A DNA stretch of 64,000 bases, taken from the NCBI GenBank assembly GCA_018780035.1, contig JADMKE010000008.1, positions 7,778 to 71,777 of the forward strand, read 5' to 3'. The first letter of the stretch is position 1. The number at the start of each line of letters is the position of its first letter. The DNA comes from Candidatus Sericytochromatia bacterium (GTDB lineage: Bacteria > Cyanobacteriota > Sericytochromatia > UBA7694). Below the pieces are notes generated by a model. The model had not been told where the DNA came from, ran no database searches, and saw only the letters and a list, made by a program, of their open reading frames with translations. This document shows, piece after piece, positions 23,011 through 31,538 of this stretch. The position numbers and the translations under genes were made by a program.

Positions 23011-24114
23011 TTACTCGTCGCCGAGGCAAATGCCTATATCTCGGGCAGAAAGGATGGTGTCTGAGTCCAAGGGCACCTGTTTCATGCGCGAGAGGGCGTC
23101 TTCGAGATGCACGTATTTGACCGTGGGCGGATCCAAAGCGACCATATGGCCAAATTTTTCCTCTTCCACTGCCCGCACCGCAGCAGCCCCGAAGCGCGTC
23201 GCGACCAAACGGTCAAAGGTCGTGGGAGAGCCCCCCCGCTGCAAATGGCCGAGCACCACAAAACGGGTGTCGTTGCCTGTGCGCTCTTTGATTTGCTGAG
23301 CCACATGTTCGCCCAAGCCACCGAGTAATACTTCCTGGCGGCCATCCACGGCCCCCCCTTTGACACTGAGCCCGCCGCCTTTGGGAATGGCCCCTTCGGC
23401 GACCACCACAATGCCATAGTCTTTTTTCTGCAGCTTGCCTTCCATCAGGCGGCGGCAGACGACATCGATATCGTAGGGAATTTCGGGAATCAAAATCACG
23501 TCAGCGGCCCCACTGATCCCAGCATTGAGGGCAATCCAACCGGCATACCGCCCCATCACTTCGACCACCATGATTCGGCCATGGGCTTTGGCGGTGGTGT
23601 GCAATTTATCCAATGCTTCAGTGGCCGTTGTGACCGCTGTATCAAAGCCAAAGGTGACAACCGTTGAAGAGAGATCGTTGTCGATGGTTTTGGGCACACC
23701 AATCACGGGAATGCCCTTCTGATGCAATTGGTAGCCAATGGCCAAACTGCCATCGCCCCCGACACAAATCAGGGCATTCAAATTCAGGGCTTTAAAATTG
23801 CTGACAATCCGATCGCTGATATCCCGCACTTCGATCTCACCGGCGGCGTTGGTCACAGGCATTTCAAAGGGATTGCCTTTATTGGTGGTGCCAATCAAGG
23901 TGCCACCAAGGGGCAAAATATCGCGCACCAGGGCCGGGGTCAAATGGGTGATCTCTTCGGTATCCAGCAAACCGCGATAGCCGTCATGAATGCCGTAAAC
24001 CTCCCAGCCACGGTTATAGGCGCTCAAAACCACAGCCCGAATCACACCGTTCAGGCCAGGCGCGTCACCGCCGCCGGTATTAATTGCAATGCGTTTGGTG
24101 TTTCGGTAAGCCAT
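23011..24114 (-). CDS. pfkA: ATP-dependent 6-phosphofructokinase
   Basis: Motifs NTGGGDAPGLNGVIRAVV, GGDGS (Gly, not Asp, favouring ATP-dependence), PKTIDNDL and MGRYAGWIAL. Size is 367 aa. Confidence 0.9.
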   Translation of the reverse strand: MAYRNTKRIAINTGGGDAPGLNGVIRAVVLSAYNRGWEVYGIHDGYRGLLDTEEITHLTPALVRDILPLGGTLIGTTNKGNPFEMPVTNAAGEIEVRDISDRIVSNFKALNLNALICVGGDGSLAIGYQLHQKGIPVIGVPKTIDNDLSSTVVTFGFDTAVTTATEALDKLHTTAKAHGRIMVVEVMGRYAGWIALNAGISGAADVILIPEIPYDIDVVCRRLMEGKLQKKDYGIVVVAEGAIPKGGGLSVKGGAVDGRQEVLLGGLGEHVAQQIKERTGNDTRFVVLGHLQRGGSPTTFDRLVATRFGAAAVRAVEEEKFGHMVALDPPTVKYVHLEDALSRMKQVPLDSDTILSARDIGICLGDE

Positions 24115-24264
24115 GATTTTCCCCTTGTCTGGATATAGATTTCAACAATTGGAGTGAGCATAACAGATTTTGGGGGCAGTTGCATTGAGTAAGATCAGTT
24201 GATCTTTGATTCGCAAAGAACCTGCTGAAACTAAAATATTTTCACAAAACCACCCCCCTATCCC

Positions 24265-24293
24265 TTGACGTTATCTTAAACATAATTTAATAT
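24265..24293 (+). promoter_or_regulatory. Strong sigma70-type promoter driving the candidate ncRNA
   Basis: -35 TTGACG (24265-24270), 17-nt spacer, -10 TAATAT (24288-24293). Predicted TSS ~24300. Confidence 0.45.
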
Positions 24294-24299
24294 GAATAT

Positions 24300-25067
24300 T
24301 ACGAACTCCGAGTGAGCTTAAACAAAGCGTCACGAATGGTCTGGGTGAAACTCCCAGCCGCAACCCCAGGAGGGAAGGCAGCGTTCGTCTTTTGGCAACA
24401 AAGGGCGTTTAAAAGCAAGCCTATCTGCTCAGTGAGAGTTAAGACCTTGAAGTCGGGTCCGCAAGGATAACGGCAAGAAGGGAGTCCCGCAGAAGTGTGG
24501 GAGCAGCTCTGAGCAGGGAGAAATCCCTGGAGGGAAAAACTCAGGAGGGTCAAGTTCGGATGGCAACATCTGGAACACTGCCACAAGGGAAAAAATCCCT
24601 GAAGCCGTTGAAACGGCAAGAGGGACAGGCGCCGGTAACGGTGGCCGATCGGGTGGCGGGGCAAAGCCCTGAAGAGTGAAGTACAGGAGGGGATCGGGTT
24701 TCTGGTTGGGTTTCGGCCTTGCGAGAAGCAACGGATCCGGTTCGGGTGAAAAGCCTTGAAGCTGTCAAAACAGCACGAAGGCCAAGGCAAGGGAAGCCGA
24801 AAGGTTTGTTTTGCACACACGGGCCGGGGGAAAACCCCTGTAGTACCCAGAGGAAGTCTGGAGGAGGACCTGTACCGCAAGGTGCGGGTAGCCGTGTTCG
24901 GAAGCGCGGGCTGAAAGGCCCGATGTCAGGTGCGCTGAAGGTGTTAAAACGCCAAGAGTGCAACCGGGAAACCTGAGAGGGACCTTCCCGCCGATCAACG
25001 GTAAAGACTCCATGAGACGGTCAAGGACGCACGAAGTTTAAGTTCGCCGGGGTTCTTCCCCTTTTTT
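24300..25067 (+). ncRNA. Candidate large structured ncRNA or long leader (~770 nt) built from >=6 degenerate modules of a GNRA-capped hairpin followed by CCCTGAAG
   Basis: The 1.1-kb gap between pfkA and the next gene has no credible ORF. Hairpins: CAGGGA-GAAA-TCCCTG (24514-24529), AGGGA-AAAAA-TCCCT (24586-24600), GGGGC-AAA-GCCCT (24658-24670), CGGGGG-AAAA-CCCCTG (24826-24841) and CGGGC-TGAAAG-GCCCG (24907-24922). Each is followed by (C)CCTGAAG/TGGAG/TGTAG. Additional GCAA and GUAA tetraloops are present. It is bounded by a promoter and an intrinsic terminator. Confidence 0.4.
25046..25067 (+). terminator. Intrinsic terminator at the 3' end of the candidate ncRNA
   Basis: GC stem GGGG-TTCTT-CCCC (25049-25061), extendable by CC/GG, followed by TTTTTT (25062-25067). 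Confidence 0.4.
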
Positions 25068-25205
25068 GCTCCAGCAAACGCACTGTCTTTTTCTTGGTTA
25101 AGAAAAGGTTATATTTCTGTATTATTTTATTTAATCTAACTTCATTTTTCCGCTCTGGCTGGCTACAATACAAGTGGAAGAATTTAACCGTTAAGGGATA
25201 AGACC

Positions 25206-26228
25206 TTGTTGAGCCGTTTCTTAAGCAAAAAGCTGTGTCTGGCACTGTCTTGTGTGCCCCTCCTGCTGGTAGGTTGTCAATCTACTGCGCCGCTGGGGGC
25301 TGTCTCTTTTCGTACCCAGGCCACGGCCAGCCCGCCGCGTGAGGCCCTGTTCAACCAACCCGCAGCAGCCCCGTTTATTTTCAAAAGCCGCCAAGGTTTA
25401 CTTTTGGCCTATCGTGGCCTGCAGGCTGACAGCCGCCAAATTTACGTGCGCCGCTCCCGCGATGGCCAGAGCTGGGACAGCCCCGTTCAGGTCAGCCACA
25501 ACAATCTCTCGGTCAGCCACCCCCAAATAGTTGAAGAGGCCTCCGGTAAACTCAAGCTCTTTTATCACAGCAATCAAAGTGAATCTTGGCAGCTCTATGT
25601 CTCTGAATCCAGCGATGCACAAACCTGGACCCCTCCCCGCAAAGTAGACTTGCCCGAAAGCCAAATTTCAGACTCCAGCCTTTTTTACAGCAACAAAGAA
25701 TATTTGCTCTGCTACCAGGCCTTTGGGGGCGGACTCTTTTTAACCCGTTCAAGCGACGGCCAACGTTGGGGACAACCGACTCAGATTTCAGAGAGCGGCG
25801 AAGCTCCCTCTCTGGTGCGCACAGCCCAGGGGCATTACGCCTTGGCCTATGAGGGCCCCACCGACACAGGCTGGACGATCTACCTCTCCAGCAGCAGCGA
25901 TCTCAAACAGTGGAGTGCCCCACAGGCACTGGGCCAAGAGCTGGGAGAAAACAGCCGCTCACGCTGGGGCCGTTTGGTCTCTGGCAGCAAAGGCACCACT
26001 TTGGTTTTTTCAAGCCAGACTGAAAGCGGCGCCTGGGAGCTCTACAAACGCAGTTCCAGCGACCTACAGGCCTGGAGCGCCCCCAAACAATTGACCCAAA
26101 ACGGGCTGCGCAATGTCAATCCCCAACTGGCACCGGCCTCCAGCTCTTCGGCCTATCTGGCCTGGGAACTCTCCCAGCCAGAATCACCGGCAGTGTCTCA
26201 TCTTACAGTGCAACAGCTCCAGTTTTAG
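25206..26228 (+). CDS. BNR/Asp-box repeat (sialidase-like beta-propeller) lipoprotein
   Basis: Lipobox LLLVGCQS. Five or more S-x-D-x-x-x-W repeats (SRDGQSWDSP, SSDAQTWTPP, SSDGQRWGQP, SSSDLKQWSAP, SSSDLQAWSAP). Confidence 0.75.
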   Translation: MLSRFLSKKLCLALSCVPLLLVGCQSTAPLGAVSFRTQATASPPREALFNQPAAAPFIFKSRQGLLLAYRGLQADSRQIYVRRSRDGQSWDSPVQVSHNNLSVSHPQIVEEASGKLKLFYHSNQSESWQLYVSESSDAQTWTPPRKVDLPESQISDSSLFYSNKEYLLCYQAFGGGLFLTRSSDGQRWGQPTQISESGEAPSLVRTAQGHYALAYEGPTDTGWTIYLSSSSDLKQWSAPQALGQELGENSRSRWGRLVSGSKGTTLVFSSQTESGAWELYKRSSSDLQAWSAPKQLTQNGLRNVNPQLAPASSSSAYLAWELSQPESPAVSHLTVQQLQF

Positions 26229-28522: not shown

Positions 28523-29379
28523 GGGCTGCGCAGATAATTTTTGGCCGCGGGAATCGAAAGGGTGGCCTGGGTGGCACAGCACCAAGCACTCAAACGGCCC
28601 CCATAGACACAAGCGGTATCTATTTGCAGACACTGGGCTTTTTTCCAGCGTTTGAGCCGGGCCACGGGCGTATGGCCCGAGACATGCAGACGCAAACTGT
28701 CAGGAGGAGAACTCGGGGGCACCCGGTTCCAGACCAGAGAATGGCTGTGTTGTAAAAAAGCCTGGGCCGCATCGGCATTGCGCAGTCGCACCGGCTGCAA
28801 GGCGTAAATCAGGGTCAGATCTTTGGGGCGGGCCAGGGCATGGGTCACCACGACTTGCTGATCACTCCAGACATAGGGCAGATGCAGCAGGAAATGCAGC
28901 AATTCTGGTTCAATTTTCCAAGTTTCGGGCTGTTCAGGATCGCAGCCAAAACTGCGCAGGGTCTGATACCCGCCCTGACTGACCCACATGCAGCGGGCAT
29001 AATTGCGGTAGTCTTCCCAACTCAGCCAGCGGCTGAATCCCGCCTGAGAACGCCAACTTTGACGATAGGTATTGAGCCAACGTGGCCAAGTCATATTCTC
29101 AAAATTCCAGGGAGCCCACTCCTGCAGACATTCCAACATCATCAGCTCATGATTGCCCATCACCACAACATGGGTGCCTGCGCGCACCCCTTTCAAAAAA
29201 TGCTGCACCACCCCCAACGAATCGGGCCCCCGGTCGATCAGATCGCCGACAGAGACAATCAGCGGCGTCCAACCTCTGCGAACGGCTTGGCGCTTGATTT
29301 TGGCCTCCAAGGCCAAGAGTTCTTCATAACAGCCATGGATATCGCCAATCAGGTAGACAACGGTTTCGGCTTCGGACAT
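28519..29379 (-). CDS. Metallophosphoesterase (PPP/ApaH-PrpE-like Ser/Thr phosphatase)
   Basis: VYLIGDIHGCYEEL, VSVGDLIDRGPDS and VVVMGNHE motifs. The start ATG (29379-29377) overlaps the upstream gene's TGA by 1 nt (TGATG). Confidence 0.8.
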   Translation of the reverse strand: MSEAETVVYLIGDIHGCYEELLALEAKIKRQAVRRGWTPLIVSVGDLIDRGPDSLGVVQHFLKGVRAGTHVVVMGNHELMMLECLQEWAPWNFENMTWPRWLNTYRQSWRSQAGFSRWLSWEDYRNYARCMWVSQGGYQTLRSFGCDPEQPETWKIEPELLHFLLHLPYVWSDQQVVVTHALARPKDLTLIYALQPVRLRNADAAQAFLQHSHSLVWNRVPPSSPPDSLRLHVSGHTPVARLKRWKKAQCLQIDTACVYGGRLSAWCCATQATLSIPAAKNYLRSP

Positions 29380-31538
29380 CAACGGGGCTCCAATTCTTTT
29401 AAACAGCGGGCCCAGGCCAATGGAGCCGAAGGGTCTTCCCACAAAGCGGGTGCTTGGGCCCGGATTTTTTCACGTAAGGCTTGGTTAAGCTCTGGATCGG
29501 TCGCCACTTGCAGGGCTTTTTCAATATACGCCTCTGCGCTGCCAACGACGCAATCAGGCAGCCCAAATTTGAGATAAGCCGCCAAAGCGACACGCCCCTG
29601 GGCCATTTCCGTCGGCCAAGTGATCACCGGCAGACCCAACGAAAGTGCTTCGAAGATCGCGGTCCCCCCCCCACAGGGCCGGGGGTCGAGCATGACTGAG
29701 CCCAAAGAGAGTAAATTGAGGTATTCATCGTGTGCCAGCGGAGGCAAGAACCAAATACGGGGCATGAGATCACTCAGGTTCGTTTCAAAGCGCCGCAGCA
29801 GCGCTTCGCGGGCCTTCTCGCCATCAGGCTGGGTCAGCAAAACCAGATGACCTTTGCGATCACTGCGCAAGATCTCCGCCAAGATCAGGTCAAATTCTGG
29901 CTGCAGTTTGGAAAGGCGATGGGGGCACAAATAAAGTGCGCCCTCTGCGGGCAAACCATAGTCCGAACGCGGCCAAAGCTGGCCTTCTGGATGGCGCAAG
30001 ACAAAACCCGGCGGCTGAAAAAAAGCGGGCAACGCCTCCAATTGGATCAGCTTTTCGCTGTAAAAACGCTGGGGATTGTCAGGGGGTTCGACAGCTGTGG
30101 CAGAAATAACATAATCCATTTCGGGCAGGCCTGTCGTGCCCAGACTGAGCCAGGAAGTCAATTGCACAGGAGCCAGGCGATAAGAGGCCAGTAGCAATTG
30201 CAAACTCTGCTCGGCATGGGGCTCAGTCAAACAGAGCAGATCCAGATCCAAGGCCAATAATTGGCCCAAAGCTTCGGGAATCTGATCAGACAAGATCGTA
30301 AAATCGCAATCTGGGGGCAGGGGTTGAAAACTCTGAAAGGCGAAAAAATCTGTAAACACCCATTGCAAATCGAGTCCGTCCAAGGGCAGACGCAGAATCA
30401 GCTGAAAGAACTGTCTCAGGGCCGGATGGGCAGGGCCAAAGACAAAAGCCACGCGCCGCTGCTGATCTGACCTGGGTAAAGCCGGGGGCTCGGCCTGCAA
30501 GGGCGGCAGCAAACGCTGCAGCAAACGTGCCAATTGTTGGCGTGGGACAAGGGCTTCGGTGCCAGTATAGACCAGATTGTGCAGGGGCAGCCAATTGGAG
30601 AAATAGGGCTCGACATTGCTAAAATCCGGTAAAATCTGGGCCCCCCCTGGCAAATCTGCCAACAGGCTAAAACGAGCCAAATGAGCCGTTAATGCCTGCA
30701 AGGCTTGGTTTTGGCTCTCAGCTGAAGCAGGAAAAAGAGGCATGATCAGGCCCTGTTTGAGCTCCCAAGCCAAGCGATCGGGCAAAGCCGGGTCCTCCAA
30801 AGCCATCTGATAACACTTTTGGGCCTCTTCCAATTGGTATTCACTTTCCATCAAAATGCCGACACGTGCGGCAATCAAATGGCGCAAAGCAGGGTAAGAC
30901 GTGGCAAGTGAAATCAAAAAATCCATGGTCTGTTCTGGATTTTTGCCGGTTTCAATCTGCAGCCACATGCTCAGGGCCTGGGGATGTTCGGGCTCCAATT
31001 GCAGGGCTTTAAAATAATACTGAGCGGCTTTATCCAGGGACTGCATCGAGAGAAAAAGGTCTCCCAGCACCACCAAAATATCCACCCGATCGGGGTGAAA
31101 CTGCAGGTATTTGAGAAAGTGTTGAATCGCTTGGGCCGGTTGGTTTAACTCACGGCAGAGAAAGCCGGCATGAAAATAGGCTTCGCTGAATTGCAAATCC
31201 AATTTGAAGGTCTTTTGGTAATATTCCAGGGCTTCTTCAAAGGCCCCAAAATAGCGCTGATAAATCTGGCCCAATTGGAAATAGGCAGGGGCAAAAACCG
31301 GGTTGTGATCCAGAACCTGCTTAAAGGCGCGGATCGCAGGGGCATATTCATGGCGTTCAATCTGCAGAAGCCCCAATTCATAAGCGGCCTCAGTCATATC
31401 TGGCGCCAATTCCAATGCCATTTGATAATGCAAAGCAGCCAGGTCCAACAGCCCCTGCGCTTGCAGTTGCTGGGCCTCCTCAAAATGCTGAAGTTCTGCT
31501 TTGGCTTCCACTTTTCCCGCCTTAATTCTGGTAGTCAT
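29379..31538 (-). CDS. TPR-repeat protein fused to O-GlcNAc-transferase-like (GT41/SPINDLY family) glycosyltransferase domain
   Basis: N-terminal TPRs (…AYFQLGQIYQRYFGAFEEALEYYQKTFKLD…). The C-terminal region (…LPVITWPTEMAQGRVALAAYLKFGLPDCVVGSAEAYIEKALQVATDPELNQALREKI…) matches the SPINDLY-type OGT C-terminal catalytic lobe. Confidence 0.7.
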   Translation of the reverse strand: MTTRIKAGKVEAKAELQHFEEAQQLQAQGLLDLAALHYQMALELAPDMTEAAYELGLLQIERHEYAPAIRAFKQVLDHNPVFAPAYFQLGQIYQRYFGAFEEALEYYQKTFKLDLQFSEAYFHAGFLCRELNQPAQAIQHFLKYLQFHPDRVDILVVLGDLFLSMQSLDKAAQYYFKALQLEPEHPQALSMWLQIETGKNPEQTMDFLISLATSYPALRHLIAARVGILMESEYQLEEAQKCYQMALEDPALPDRLAWELKQGLIMPLFPASAESQNQALQALTAHLARFSLLADLPGGAQILPDFSNVEPYFSNWLPLHNLVYTGTEALVPRQQLARLLQRLLPPLQAEPPALPRSDQQRRVAFVFGPAHPALRQFFQLILRLPLDGLDLQWVFTDFFAFQSFQPLPPDCDFTILSDQIPEALGQLLALDLDLLCLTEPHAEQSLQLLLASYRLAPVQLTSWLSLGTTGLPEMDYVISATAVEPPDNPQRFYSEKLIQLEALPAFFQPPGFVLRHPEGQLWPRSDYGLPAEGALYLCPHRLSKLQPEFDLILAEILRSDRKGHLVLLTQPDGEKAREALLRRFETNLSDLMPRIWFLPPLAHDEYLNLLSLGSVMLDPRPCGGGTAIFEALSLGLPVITWPTEMAQGRVALAAYLKFGLPDCVVGSAEAYIEKALQVATDPELNQALREKIRAQAPALWEDPSAPLAWARCLKELEPR

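Follow-up and report, generated by a model that had tools for sequence, protein, structure and literature searches.

A stand-alone gene for a large, modular structured RNA in a Candidatus Sericytochromatia bacterium

Bacterial non-coding RNAs (ncRNAs) that are longer than ~500 nt and have a conserved fold are, to our knowledge, rare. RNase P, tmRNA, the group I and group II introns, OLE, GOLLD, ROOL and HEARO have each proved to be a ribozyme, the core of a ribonucleoprotein or an unexpected assembly. The large structured RNAs OLE, GOLLD, ROOL, HEARO and raiA span ~0.2–0.8 kb, a range that includes the RNA described here. Repeated RNA units are also found in the wider phylum Cyanobacteriota, where each repeat of the NsiR1 array is a gene of its own, with a separate promoter and terminator. 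Here we describe an RNA gene of ~767 nt on contig JADMKE010000008.1 of Candidatus Sericytochromatia bacterium, within a stretch of 64,000 nt that is referred to as the window and whose positions are used for all coordinates. The gene lies in the gap between pfkA and a sialidase-like BNR_2 lipoprotein gene (BNR), which measured 1091 nt, in agreement with the preliminary description of this DNA. It has its own sigma70-type promoter, ends at a U-run and belongs to a family that is absent from Rfam 15. The RNA is in our judgement very likely to be a real, stand-alone, structured ncRNA on the + strand. Related loci and contigs that were compared with the window are labelled with L-numbers (L003, L089 and so on).

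The structure of the RNA was examined by single-sequence folding and by covariation. Folding gave a z-score of -5.46 for the + strand and -1.60 for the - strand. The consensus fold was obtained from the four full-length sequences within an eight-sequence alignment (alignment A3) and contained 230 pairs with 97% of cells paired, a percentage that is inflated because the fold was derived from the same four sequences in which the pairs were counted. The number of compensatory pairs is much less sensitive to this circularity. Changes on both sides were observed at 33 pairs, compared with 15.1 ± 2.6 in column shuffles, where none of 500 shuffles reached 33, and sliding the partners by 1–3 columns gave at most 4 double-change pairs. 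No single element demonstrates RNA structure on the + strand more clearly than the hairpin at 24868–24889 (Table 1). The two ends of the RNA would be closed by the predicted helix P1, whose 20 pairs are all formed in all four full sequences and which is near-invariant, one position changing from U-A to U-G between lineages.

The consensus fold contains eight GNRA-type loops, most of which are GNRA in every lineage. The exceptions are one UUCG and one AAGG loop in L089, and one loop that is replaced by an inserted hairpin in the window. Because the GNRA loops stay GNRA and ~30 G-U pairs are present, the + strand was identified as the RNA strand. The preliminary description had listed GCAA and GUAA tetraloop hairpins, and these were present at or near the places given, with CCGCAAGG at 24459–24466 and 24875–24882 and CCGGTAACGG at 24632–24641. 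Its wider proposal of a structured modular RNA on the + strand was supported by the covariation, the GNRA/UNCG loop substitutions, the G-U pairs and the z-scores of the two strands.

The near-consensus promoter of the preliminary description, TTGACG-17-TAATAT, was found in the window and is conserved in the homologues. Promoter-like sites were found four times in the scan, against 0.4 expected in shuffles. The promoter is identical in L003 and L002, and at the same distance from the conserved 5' end the other homologues carry TTGACA-17-TAATAT (L090), TTGCTG-17-TAATAT (L089) and TTGACA-17-TATCAT (L098), while no conservation was seen upstream of the -35 box. The conserved block in alignment A3 begins exactly at 24301 in all full-length homologues and its first 34 nt are invariant across all lineages. 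The 5' end of the RNA would thus be the A of ACGAACUCC (24301), 7 nt past the -10 box; the same 7-nt spacing is found in L098 despite a different -10 hexamer. Conservation drops straight after the U-run, which would place the 3' end at 25067. An intrinsic terminator, GGGG-TTCTT-CCCC-T6, had been described here. The sequence is present, ending 139 nt before the BNR start codon, but what is conserved of it is the U-run and the pairing with the 5' end, not the stem. The local GGGG/CCCC stem occurs only in the window lineage, and with its 4 bp and U6 it scores below the terminator-scan threshold; in L089, L098 and L087 (GGAGUUCUUCUC..., GGGGUUCUUUUUUU) the stem is absent and the U-run is retained. 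Termination may depend on P1 or on the weak local stem.

Homologues of the RNA were found at L003, L089, L090, L098, L093, L092, L100, L087 and L084, which adds four further lineages at 74–94% identity. In the close relative L003 the region is 94% identical and an extra gene for a 511-aa ABC1-type kinase lies between pfkA and the promoter. Homologues of the BNR protein (59–95% identity) led to contigs with the 3' part of the RNA (L084, L085, L086 and L082) and to a shortened RNA in L087. A metagenome scan with a pattern from the 3' domain returned two full-length copies in Crystal Geyser CG17 Blackallbacteria, of which one (L089) is upstream of BNR and the other (L090) lies between an AAA-ATPase gene and an SPFH gene. 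When the SPFH gene was followed through other genomes, further copies were found upstream of a TPR-GT41 gene that adjoins SPFH, full length in L098 and partial in L093 (502 nt), L092, L100, L099 and L097. In most species the RNA is not directly upstream of SPFH, and BLAST placed it one gene further upstream. The order AAA-ATPase, RNA, (TPR-GT41), SPFH is common to L090 and L098, and the RNA, TPR-GT41, SPFH part of it to L093, L092, L100, L099 and L097. The RNA gene is accordingly found at two unrelated places in this lineage. The product of the gene immediately downstream of the second copy (L092, L093 and L098) is a protein of ~770 aa with TPR and Glyco_transf_41 domains. The window itself contains a 719-aa open reading frame (ORF) at 29379–31538, and the gene at the equivalent position in the syntenic L082 matches TPR and Glyco_transf_41.

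Over the 731 nt that run from the -10 box to the T-run, the L089 copy matches the L090 copy at 100% identity, while their flanks are unrelated and their -35 hexamers differ. Between lineages the RNA diverges more slowly than the genes beside it. Window and L003 share 93.9% identity in the RNA, 88.6% in BNR and 90.1% in pfkA; window and L089 share 74.3% in the RNA and 65.0% in BNR; and the comparison with L098 and L083 gave 81.4% for the RNA, 72.8% for BNR and 78.5% for pfkA. On these alignments conservation is higher in the RNA than in the protein genes on either side. At L005, where pfkA is 78% identical, no RNA was found near pfkA. The distribution so far is a single family-level group of uncultured bacteria. 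The host was assigned to Sericytochromatia / 'Ca. Blackallbacteria' on the basis of its pfkA, which is 98–99% identical to metagenome-assembled genomes (MAGs) that carry the label Candidatus Blackallbacteria or Sericytochromatia.

The number of copies in the window genome was approached through MAG JBPXJQ01, in which pfkA is 99% identical to that of the window. Its contig L002 ends within the 5' part of the RNA next to pfkA, and its contig L092 starts within the 3' part next to TPR-GT41, the two copies being ~98% alike over the part that can be compared. Because the window RNA adjoins BNR while L092 of this MAG adjoins TPR-GT41, the window species is likely to carry two copies, and two places are most likely for the window genome. 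At least two copies per genome are probable in general. Eleven contigs from independent assemblies (Logan, ENA, JGI and NCBI MAG) end inside or at the edge of the RNA: L001, L002, L082, L084, L085, L086, L087, L092, L097, L099 and L100. The Logan contigs start 29–30 nt before the end of the T-run, presumably as a short-k-mer unitig assembler (~k = 31) would behave at the edge of a two-copy repeat. The two-copy RNA is thus a systematic breakpoint in metagenome assemblies of these genomes.

The preliminary description had offered a choice between a stand-alone large ncRNA and a very long leader or attenuator of the lipoprotein gene. A cis-acting leader is suggested by the position of the RNA, which in the window, L003, L089 and L087 precedes BNR and shares its strand. 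The same RNA, however, is upstream of TPR-GT41 or SPFH at the AAA-ATPase/TPR-GT41/SPFH locus, and the BNR orthologues in L083 and L088 lack the RNA yet keep an AT-rich region with CTACAAT (...GGTTATATTTTTGTATTATTTTATTTAAT...TTCATT-17-TACAAT). The same AT-rich block follows the U-run in the window, where the scan also found a promoter-like site at 25098–25125. As the block is kept in loci without the RNA, BNR would have a promoter of its own. Furthermore, conservation falls immediately past the U-run, and the 3' end of the RNA pairs with its 5' end and not with anything near the BNR start. The leader is on this evidence extremely improbable, and the stand-alone alternative was borne out by the second locus, the RNA-less BNR orthologues and the end of conservation at the U-run. 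The AT-rich block at 25090–25180 of the window (AAGGTTATATTTNTGTATTATTTTATTTAATNTAACTTCATTTT...CTACAAT) is conserved as far as orthologues of 59% protein identity. Its conservation exceeds that of the coding region and is seen in loci with the RNA as well as in loci that lack it. From this pattern it is probably the BNR promoter together with a regulator site or UP element.

The composition of the + strand (A 208, C 174, G 256, T 129) is purine-rich and T-poor. This bias alone leaves few stop codons on the minus strand, where long ORFs are therefore to be expected. Long ORFs were found on the minus strand of every homologue, and one is called as a gene in a public contig (L098 6950–7504, 184 aa); the indels of 12 nt and 3 nt between window and L003 are also multiples of three. 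These features would suit a protein-coding gene or decaying pseudogene, either the minus-strand 193-aa Cys/Pro/Arg-rich ORF at 24880–24299 or a small + strand ORF. Against this, the longest ORF varies between lineages in frame and in length (208, 203, 197 or 139 codons), the L089 ORF lies in another frame than that of the window, and the indels break the frame in 12 of 13 cases against L089 and in 5 of 5 against L098. For the + strand ORF at 24497–24679, L098 has a frameshift and L089 a stop after 11 codons; the + strand ORF behind AGGAGG at 24544 likewise has a frameshift in L098 and an early stop in L089. No ORF gave a Pfam match at or above the curated cut-off, the one chance-level match being BRI3 (E = 0.025, 15.5 bits against 25.9), and the substitutions are compensatory in RNA helices. 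Small ORFs behind four AGGAGG motifs were looked for by eye in the window, L098 and L089, and none was conserved. The likelihood of a coding sequence is practically negligible. The ORFs of 193 aa on the minus strand and of 60 aa and 85 aa on the plus strand were rejected as genes on the grounds of frame-breaking indels, unconserved frames and the absence of Pfam matches that reach a curated cut-off. The compositional minus-strand ORF appears in public contigs as a gene call for a hypothetical protein, at L098 (6950–7504, - strand) and at L082 (2–145, 48 aa), without a Pfam match in either case; these two calls are likely to be false, and the ORF to be mis-called.

Rfam 15 gave nothing at gathering thresholds in the window or in L098, and permissive scans of the region and of L089 gave only unrelated chance-level matches (E > 0.3). 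No covariance-model match was obtained for OLE, GOLLD, ROOL, HEARO, raiA, RNase P, tmRNA, 6S or the group I and II introns, and ARAGORN found no tRNA or tmRNA. The failure of the preliminary description to place the RNA by eye in a known family therefore persisted in the cmscan check that it had proposed. A CRISPR array was rejected since no array was found by TRF and the repeats are 63–92% alike at an irregular spacing of 70–97 nt; together with the frame-breaking indels, these results uphold the earlier view that the region is neither coding nor CRISPR. The plasmid and phage collections contained no similarity to the RNA.

The internal repeats of the RNA were analysed through an anchor motif, (C/G)YTG(A/G/T)AG, which occurs at 24446, 24526, 24598, 24668, 24755, 24837 and 24934, with a degenerate copy at 25011. 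The spacings are 80, 72, 70, 87, 82, 97 and 77 nt. Within the 767 nt the motif is found 7 times on the + strand and not at all on the - strand, compared with a whole-window rate of ~0.9 per kb per strand, and TGAAG occurs 6 times against 1.5 ± 1.2 in dinucleotide shuffles. The repeats are degenerate: TRF found no tandem array, and six families of degenerate direct repeats (D1 to D6) have spacings of 142–160 nt. At least six imperfect modules, irregularly spaced by 70–97 nt, had been described, and seven copies plus the degenerate one were counted. The unit had been drawn as a G/C stem and loop followed by (C)CCTGAAG. These motifs are present, but the covariation shows that CYUGAAG is the 5' half of the next hairpin. 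The best repeat unit, supported by covariation, is stem1, GAA, stem2, A-rich loop, stem2', AAG, stem1'. Compared informally and by eye, the GAA/AAG loop fits none of the K-turn, the 11-nt GAAA receptor and the loop E/sarcin-ricin consensus.

The body of the RNA consists of four tandem super-units of ~153–179 nt (~155 nt), which can be aligned with one another and appear to have arisen by internal duplication. Each opens with an 'A' module of the form stem1(5 bp)-GAA-stem2(5 bp)-NNAA-stem2'-AAG-stem1'. Over 14 copies of the A module 97% of cells were paired and double changes were found in 23 cells (7.9 in shuffles). While the stems covary freely, no change was seen in GAA, in AAAC of the apical loop or in the G of AAG, with GAA and AAG together forming a symmetric internal loop. 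Between the A modules lie degenerate 'B' modules with CAGGAGGG or GGAGGAGGA, which are AGGAGG-rich. The super-units also hold GNRA-capped hairpins and short GGG-loop-CCC hairpins, the latter being elements of the preliminary description. In module A2 the 5' CCC has an alternative pairing with the upstream GGG at 24586–24588, and this local hairpin covaries too (GGGAA/UUCCC against GGGUU/AACCC, as read from the alignment). The B4 region has predicted long-range pairs to 24681–24692 and 25008–25022, nearly all of them invariant; in helix 20, 9 of 10 pairs never vary, and in helix 26, 9 of 11 never vary and 1 is compensatory. A covariance model of the module, R1, found no module outside the RNA in the 64-kb window (filters off) or in 166 kb from 20 related loci. 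The short variant in L087 lacks ~260 nt and three modules, the segment equivalent to window 24505–24674 being joined to 24932 onward with a hybrid module at the junction. At 24706–24722 the window and L093 carry an expansion of 12–14 nt (GGGUUUCGGCC, a small UUCG-capped hairpin), where L003, L098 and L089 have GCAA or a short loop, so this hairpin tip tolerates insertion.

Table 1. Features of the RNA gene and its neighbours in window coordinates. Scores are those of module covariance model R1, which was not trained on copy A1; helix numbers and covariation refer to the consensus fold. MFE, minimum free energy.
Feature	Position	Strand	Remarks
pfkA	23011–24114	-	
Sigma70-type promoter	24265–24293	+	-35 TTGACG 24265–24270; 17-nt spacer; -10 TAATAT 24288–24293
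RNA gene, ~767 nt	24301–25067	+	Limits from conservation block, promoter and U-run
P1, 5' strand of closing helix	24303–24323 (nt 3–23)	+	Pairs with 25036–25055; single-sequence MFE and 4-sequence alifold
P2, 5' strand GCGUCAC	24327–24333	+	Pairs with 25025–25030 (GGACGC); invariant
P3 hairpin, U-GNRA-NU loop	24338–24359	+	One compensatory pair, U-A to C-G; loop GAAA, GAAA, GAGA, GUAA across lineages
Module A1 (variant), CCUU-GAA-[extended stem2, GCAA cap]-AAG-AAGG	24444–24482	+	15.9 bits, E = 0.02; stems covary, helices 9–11
Module B2 (degenerate), UCCCU-GGA-...-AGG-AGGGU, contains CAGGAGGG	24524–24550	+	10 bits, weak; aligns with other B units
9-bp hairpin, GCAA cap (GUAA in L087)	24554–24576	+	Three compensatory pairs; helix 15
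Module A2, UCCCU-GAA-GCCGU-UGAA-ACGGC-AAG-AGGGA	24596–24625	+	46.5 bits; pairs 301-330 and 309-322 covary
Hairpin GGCGCCG-GUAA-CGGUGGCC	24628–24646	+	Invariant GUAA loop; helix 19; one-sided changes only
Module B3, GCCCUGAAGAGUGAAGUACAGGAGGGG, includes 17-nt invariant stretch UGAAGUACAGGAGGGGA	24666–24692	+	12.6 bits
Module A3, GCCUU-GAA-GCUGU-CAAA-ACAGC-ACG-AAGGC	24753–24782	+	45.9 bits
Hairpin capped GAAA, GAGA or GCAA	24787–24814	+	Three compensatory pairs; helix 25
Module B4 region, CCCCUGUAGUACCCAGAGGAAGUCUGGAGGAG	24835–24866	+	Aligns with B2 and B3
9-bp hairpin, cap GCAA (window), GCGA (L098), UUCG (L089)	24868–24889	+	6 of 9 pairs compensatory; helix 27
Hairpin GCGCGGGCU-GAAA-GGCCCGAUGU	24904–24926	+	Helix 29; near-invariant
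Module A4, GGUGCGCU-GAA-GGUGU-UAAA-ACGCC-AAG-AGUGCAACC	24929–24965	+	49.3 bits at 24932–24961; stem2 covaries, helix 31
Hairpin GGGAA...UUCCC	24966–24989	+	Helix 32; two covarying pairs: A-U, G-C; and A-U, C-G, U-A in three lineages
P1, 3' strand GUUUAAGUUCGCCGGGGUUC	25036–25055	+	Followed directly by U-rich tail UUCUUC..UUUUUU
U-rich 3' tail, local GGGG-UUCUU-CCCC stem and U6	25049–25067	+	Inferred transcription stop
BNR_2 lipoprotein gene (sialidase-like)	25206–26228	+	TTG start

The explanation that we prefer, held tentatively and at somewhat less than even likelihood, combines the stand-alone gene with a multivalent scaffold or decoy RNA; the scaffold or decoy mechanism taken by itself is the more doubtful part. 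The RNA would be an abundant, stable molecule, protected from exonucleases, and would serve in trans as a multivalent platform with 4 to 8 equivalent modules, each of them occupied by one copy of a single kind of partner, most likely a protein. In this way the RNA would titrate the partner or act as its scaffold, on the same principle as CsrB/RsmZ, CrcZ or 6S RNA but through a different recognition element. This proposal is based on the invariant loop nucleotides carried on freely covarying stems, the variable number of modules, the paralogous copies and the paired termini. The loss of ~260 nt and three modules in L087 fits additive modules better than one indivisible fold.

Several points weigh against this explanation. 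Besides the circularity noted above for the percentage of paired cells, the comparison covers three to four independent lineages only. The long-range helices P1, P2 and those closing the super-units are predicted and invariant, so that they lack covariation proof. The transcript, its ends and its abundance are read from promoter and terminator signals and from the boundaries of conservation, and the two copies in the window genome from the 99%-related MAG (L002 and L092) and the contig breaks, not from one assembly. Isolated modules in mRNA leaders, which might represent a target mimicked by the RNA, were not found in ~230 kb searched. No gene is consistently linked to the RNA except a divergent AAA-ATPase at one locus (L090 and L098). 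Finally, a compact tertiary fold would account for the eight conserved GNRA loops and the long-range helices no less well than a string of independent binding sites. The AAA+ ATPase (~490 aa, PF00004 plus AAA_lid_6, with a long N-terminal domain; L090 3236–4723 and L098 5193–6656) divergently adjoins the RNA and is the only recurrent protein-gene neighbour on its promoter side. Our impression is that it may be SpoVK/CbbX-like.

With such a compact fold the RNA would be a large self-folding or self-assembling molecule comparable to OLE, GOLLD, ROOL and raiA, or else a ribozyme not yet recognised as one. The modules and GNRA loops would then form tertiary contacts (A-minor or tetraloop-receptor-like) within one particle and would not serve as independent sites for a protein. 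Its length of ~767 nt, the z-score of -5.46, the predicted long-range helices with the terminal clamp, and the lack of a consistently linked protein gene all agree with this, as do the invariant, A-rich internal and apical loops of the modules and the eight GNRA-type loops, which mostly remain GNRA while their N and R positions vary. One of these loops is UUCG in L089, however, and would contribute only stability; the ~260-nt, three-module loss in L087 and the 12–14-nt hairpin insertion in the window are easier to reconcile with additive modules; and no similarity to any such RNA was found in Rfam. We consider this a possible but unlikely account. A further possibility, to which we give a similarly low likelihood, is a new class of giant modular bacterial RNA, ~0.75 kb in length, whose size would have come from repeated tandem copying of a ~155-nt domain and whose gene would exist as two homogenised copies. 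Its GAA/AAG hairpins and GNRA loops would drive the assembly of an RNA-only or RNA-protein particle, with a function unlike that of the known sponges, riboswitches or ribozymes. The spacing of 70–97 nt with a conserved boundary motif and the shared architecture of the units would also be expected of a precursor from which cleavage at each CYUGAAG boundary releases about eight small RNAs (70–97 nt each), for which the tandem array of cyanobacterial NsiR1 offers a distant precedent. This polycistronic arrangement is improbable: CYUGAAG is the 5' strand of a covarying hairpin and not a single-stranded linker, the units have no promoters or terminators of their own, and the pairing of the invariant 5' and 3' ends, together with helices that cross the unit boundaries, suggests that the RNA works intact.

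A sponge for a CsrA/RsmA-type protein, analogous to CsrB or RsmZ, was considered because the RNA contains 26 GGA triplets, along with its AGGAGG motifs, and Rsm sponges are usually multi-copy. In addition, GUACAGGAG at 24681–24689 equals the first nine positions of RUACARGGAUGU, the CsrA consensus from systematic evolution of ligands by exponential enrichment (SELEX), and Rfam CsrC gave a 28-nt match over two GGA hairpins. That match scored 9.7 bits against a threshold of 61 (E = 3.3) and did not recur in L089. The GGA triplets are not enriched (23.0 ± 3.2 in dinucleotide shuffles, 108 of 500 reaching 26), and on our reading of the consensus fold most are in stems and not in hairpin loops, while the conserved repeated element is GAA/AAG with AAAC and not GGA. 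No CsrA was found by tblastn with the E. coli and B. subtilis queries in 847 kb, which is a small fraction of any genome. Such a sponge is quite improbable, and membership of the CsrB/RsmZ type was rejected, the Rfam models for CsrB, CsrC and RsmX/Y/Z being unmatched at gathering thresholds and GGA unenriched. The identical copies at unrelated loci could also reflect a selfish or mobile repeat, or the RNA of a mobile element, whose conservation would be due to recent copying; the presence or absence of the RNA at the pfkA/BNR locus varies among lineages and contig breaks fall at the element. However, no copy has a gene for a transposase, integrase or reverse transcriptase beside it, and neither terminal inverted repeats or a target-site duplication nor a match in the plasmid and phage collections was seen. 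No more than two loci were found, synteny at the AAA/SPFH locus holds across at least four species, the duplicated block is exactly the promoter-to-terminator unit, and compensatory evolution across lineages shows long-term selection on the fold. A mobile origin is accordingly very improbable.

Two further observations were made on the region around pfkA. At ~24227–24233 of the window a ~2.3-kb segment of the relatives (L003 2399–3934 and L002 ~190–2540), containing the gene for the 511-aa ABC1/UbiB-type kinase with its flanks, is cleanly absent. By this comparison the interval from pfkA to the RNA promoter shows an insertion/deletion polymorphism of the kinase gene within a genus. The sequence GAGTGAGCATAA upstream of pfkA (24152–24163) resembles GAGTGAGCTTAA in the 5' end of the RNA (24310–24321) at 11 of 12 positions, and its 23-nt context upstream of pfkA is 100% conserved in L083 (4811–4833). 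About one such match is expected by chance in this region, and the likeness may mean nothing.

The source of the RNA is a non-photosynthetic sister lineage of the Cyanobacteria, and a literature search on ncRNA or CsrA in Sericytochromatia or Blackallbacteria found nothing relevant, including no work on regulatory RNA in the lineage. The RNA merits attention for its covariation support, its visible origin from tandem domains and a defined 30-nt module that is suited to fishing for a partner. It matches no described family and its tandem-domain build is distinctive, although its general kind, a large structured or decoy ncRNA, is already known and its function is a proposal only.

When the RNA was compared with the described systems, the closest in gene organisation were CsrB, CsrC and RsmX/Y/Z (Rfam clan CL00106). 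These are stand-alone small RNA genes that run from promoter to terminator, often as paralogous copies within a genome, and they titrate a protein through many repeats of a short hairpin element whose number varies by lineage. The RNA described here is two to seven times longer, its repeat is a 30-nt hairpin with a GAA/AAG loop and not a GGA loop, and it has a terminal clamp, long-range helices and many GNRA loops, with the Rfam models unmatched. The Hfq/Crc decoys CrcZ and CrcY of Pseudomonas are RNAs of ~400 nt that compete with mRNAs through copies of an A-rich motif, and the modules here also show A-rich loops. Unlike in those decoys, AAnAAnAA is not evident by eye, the Rfam models are not matched, and the motif lies inside a defined covarying hairpin. 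With OLE, GOLLD, ROOL, HEARO and raiA the RNA shares a complex conserved fold, many GNRA loops, a narrow phylogenetic spread and no obvious target in cis. It differs from them in consisting of four tandem duplicated super-units, in tolerating the loss of units and in having no Rfam 15 match; we take GOLLD and ROOL to lie typically in prophage or tRNA neighbourhoods and OLE beside genes for its partner proteins, and neither setting was seen here. The 5' and 3' ends joined in a long helix, the sigma70-type promoter and the action in trans that is proposed here recall 6S RNA, which is four times shorter and has a central bubble resembling an open promoter that the present RNA lacks, as it does an Rfam match. 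The tandem array of NsiR1 in heterocystous cyanobacteria is likewise built from a repeated RNA unit, whereas the RNA described here has a single promoter, a single terminator and helices that reach across the boundaries of its units.

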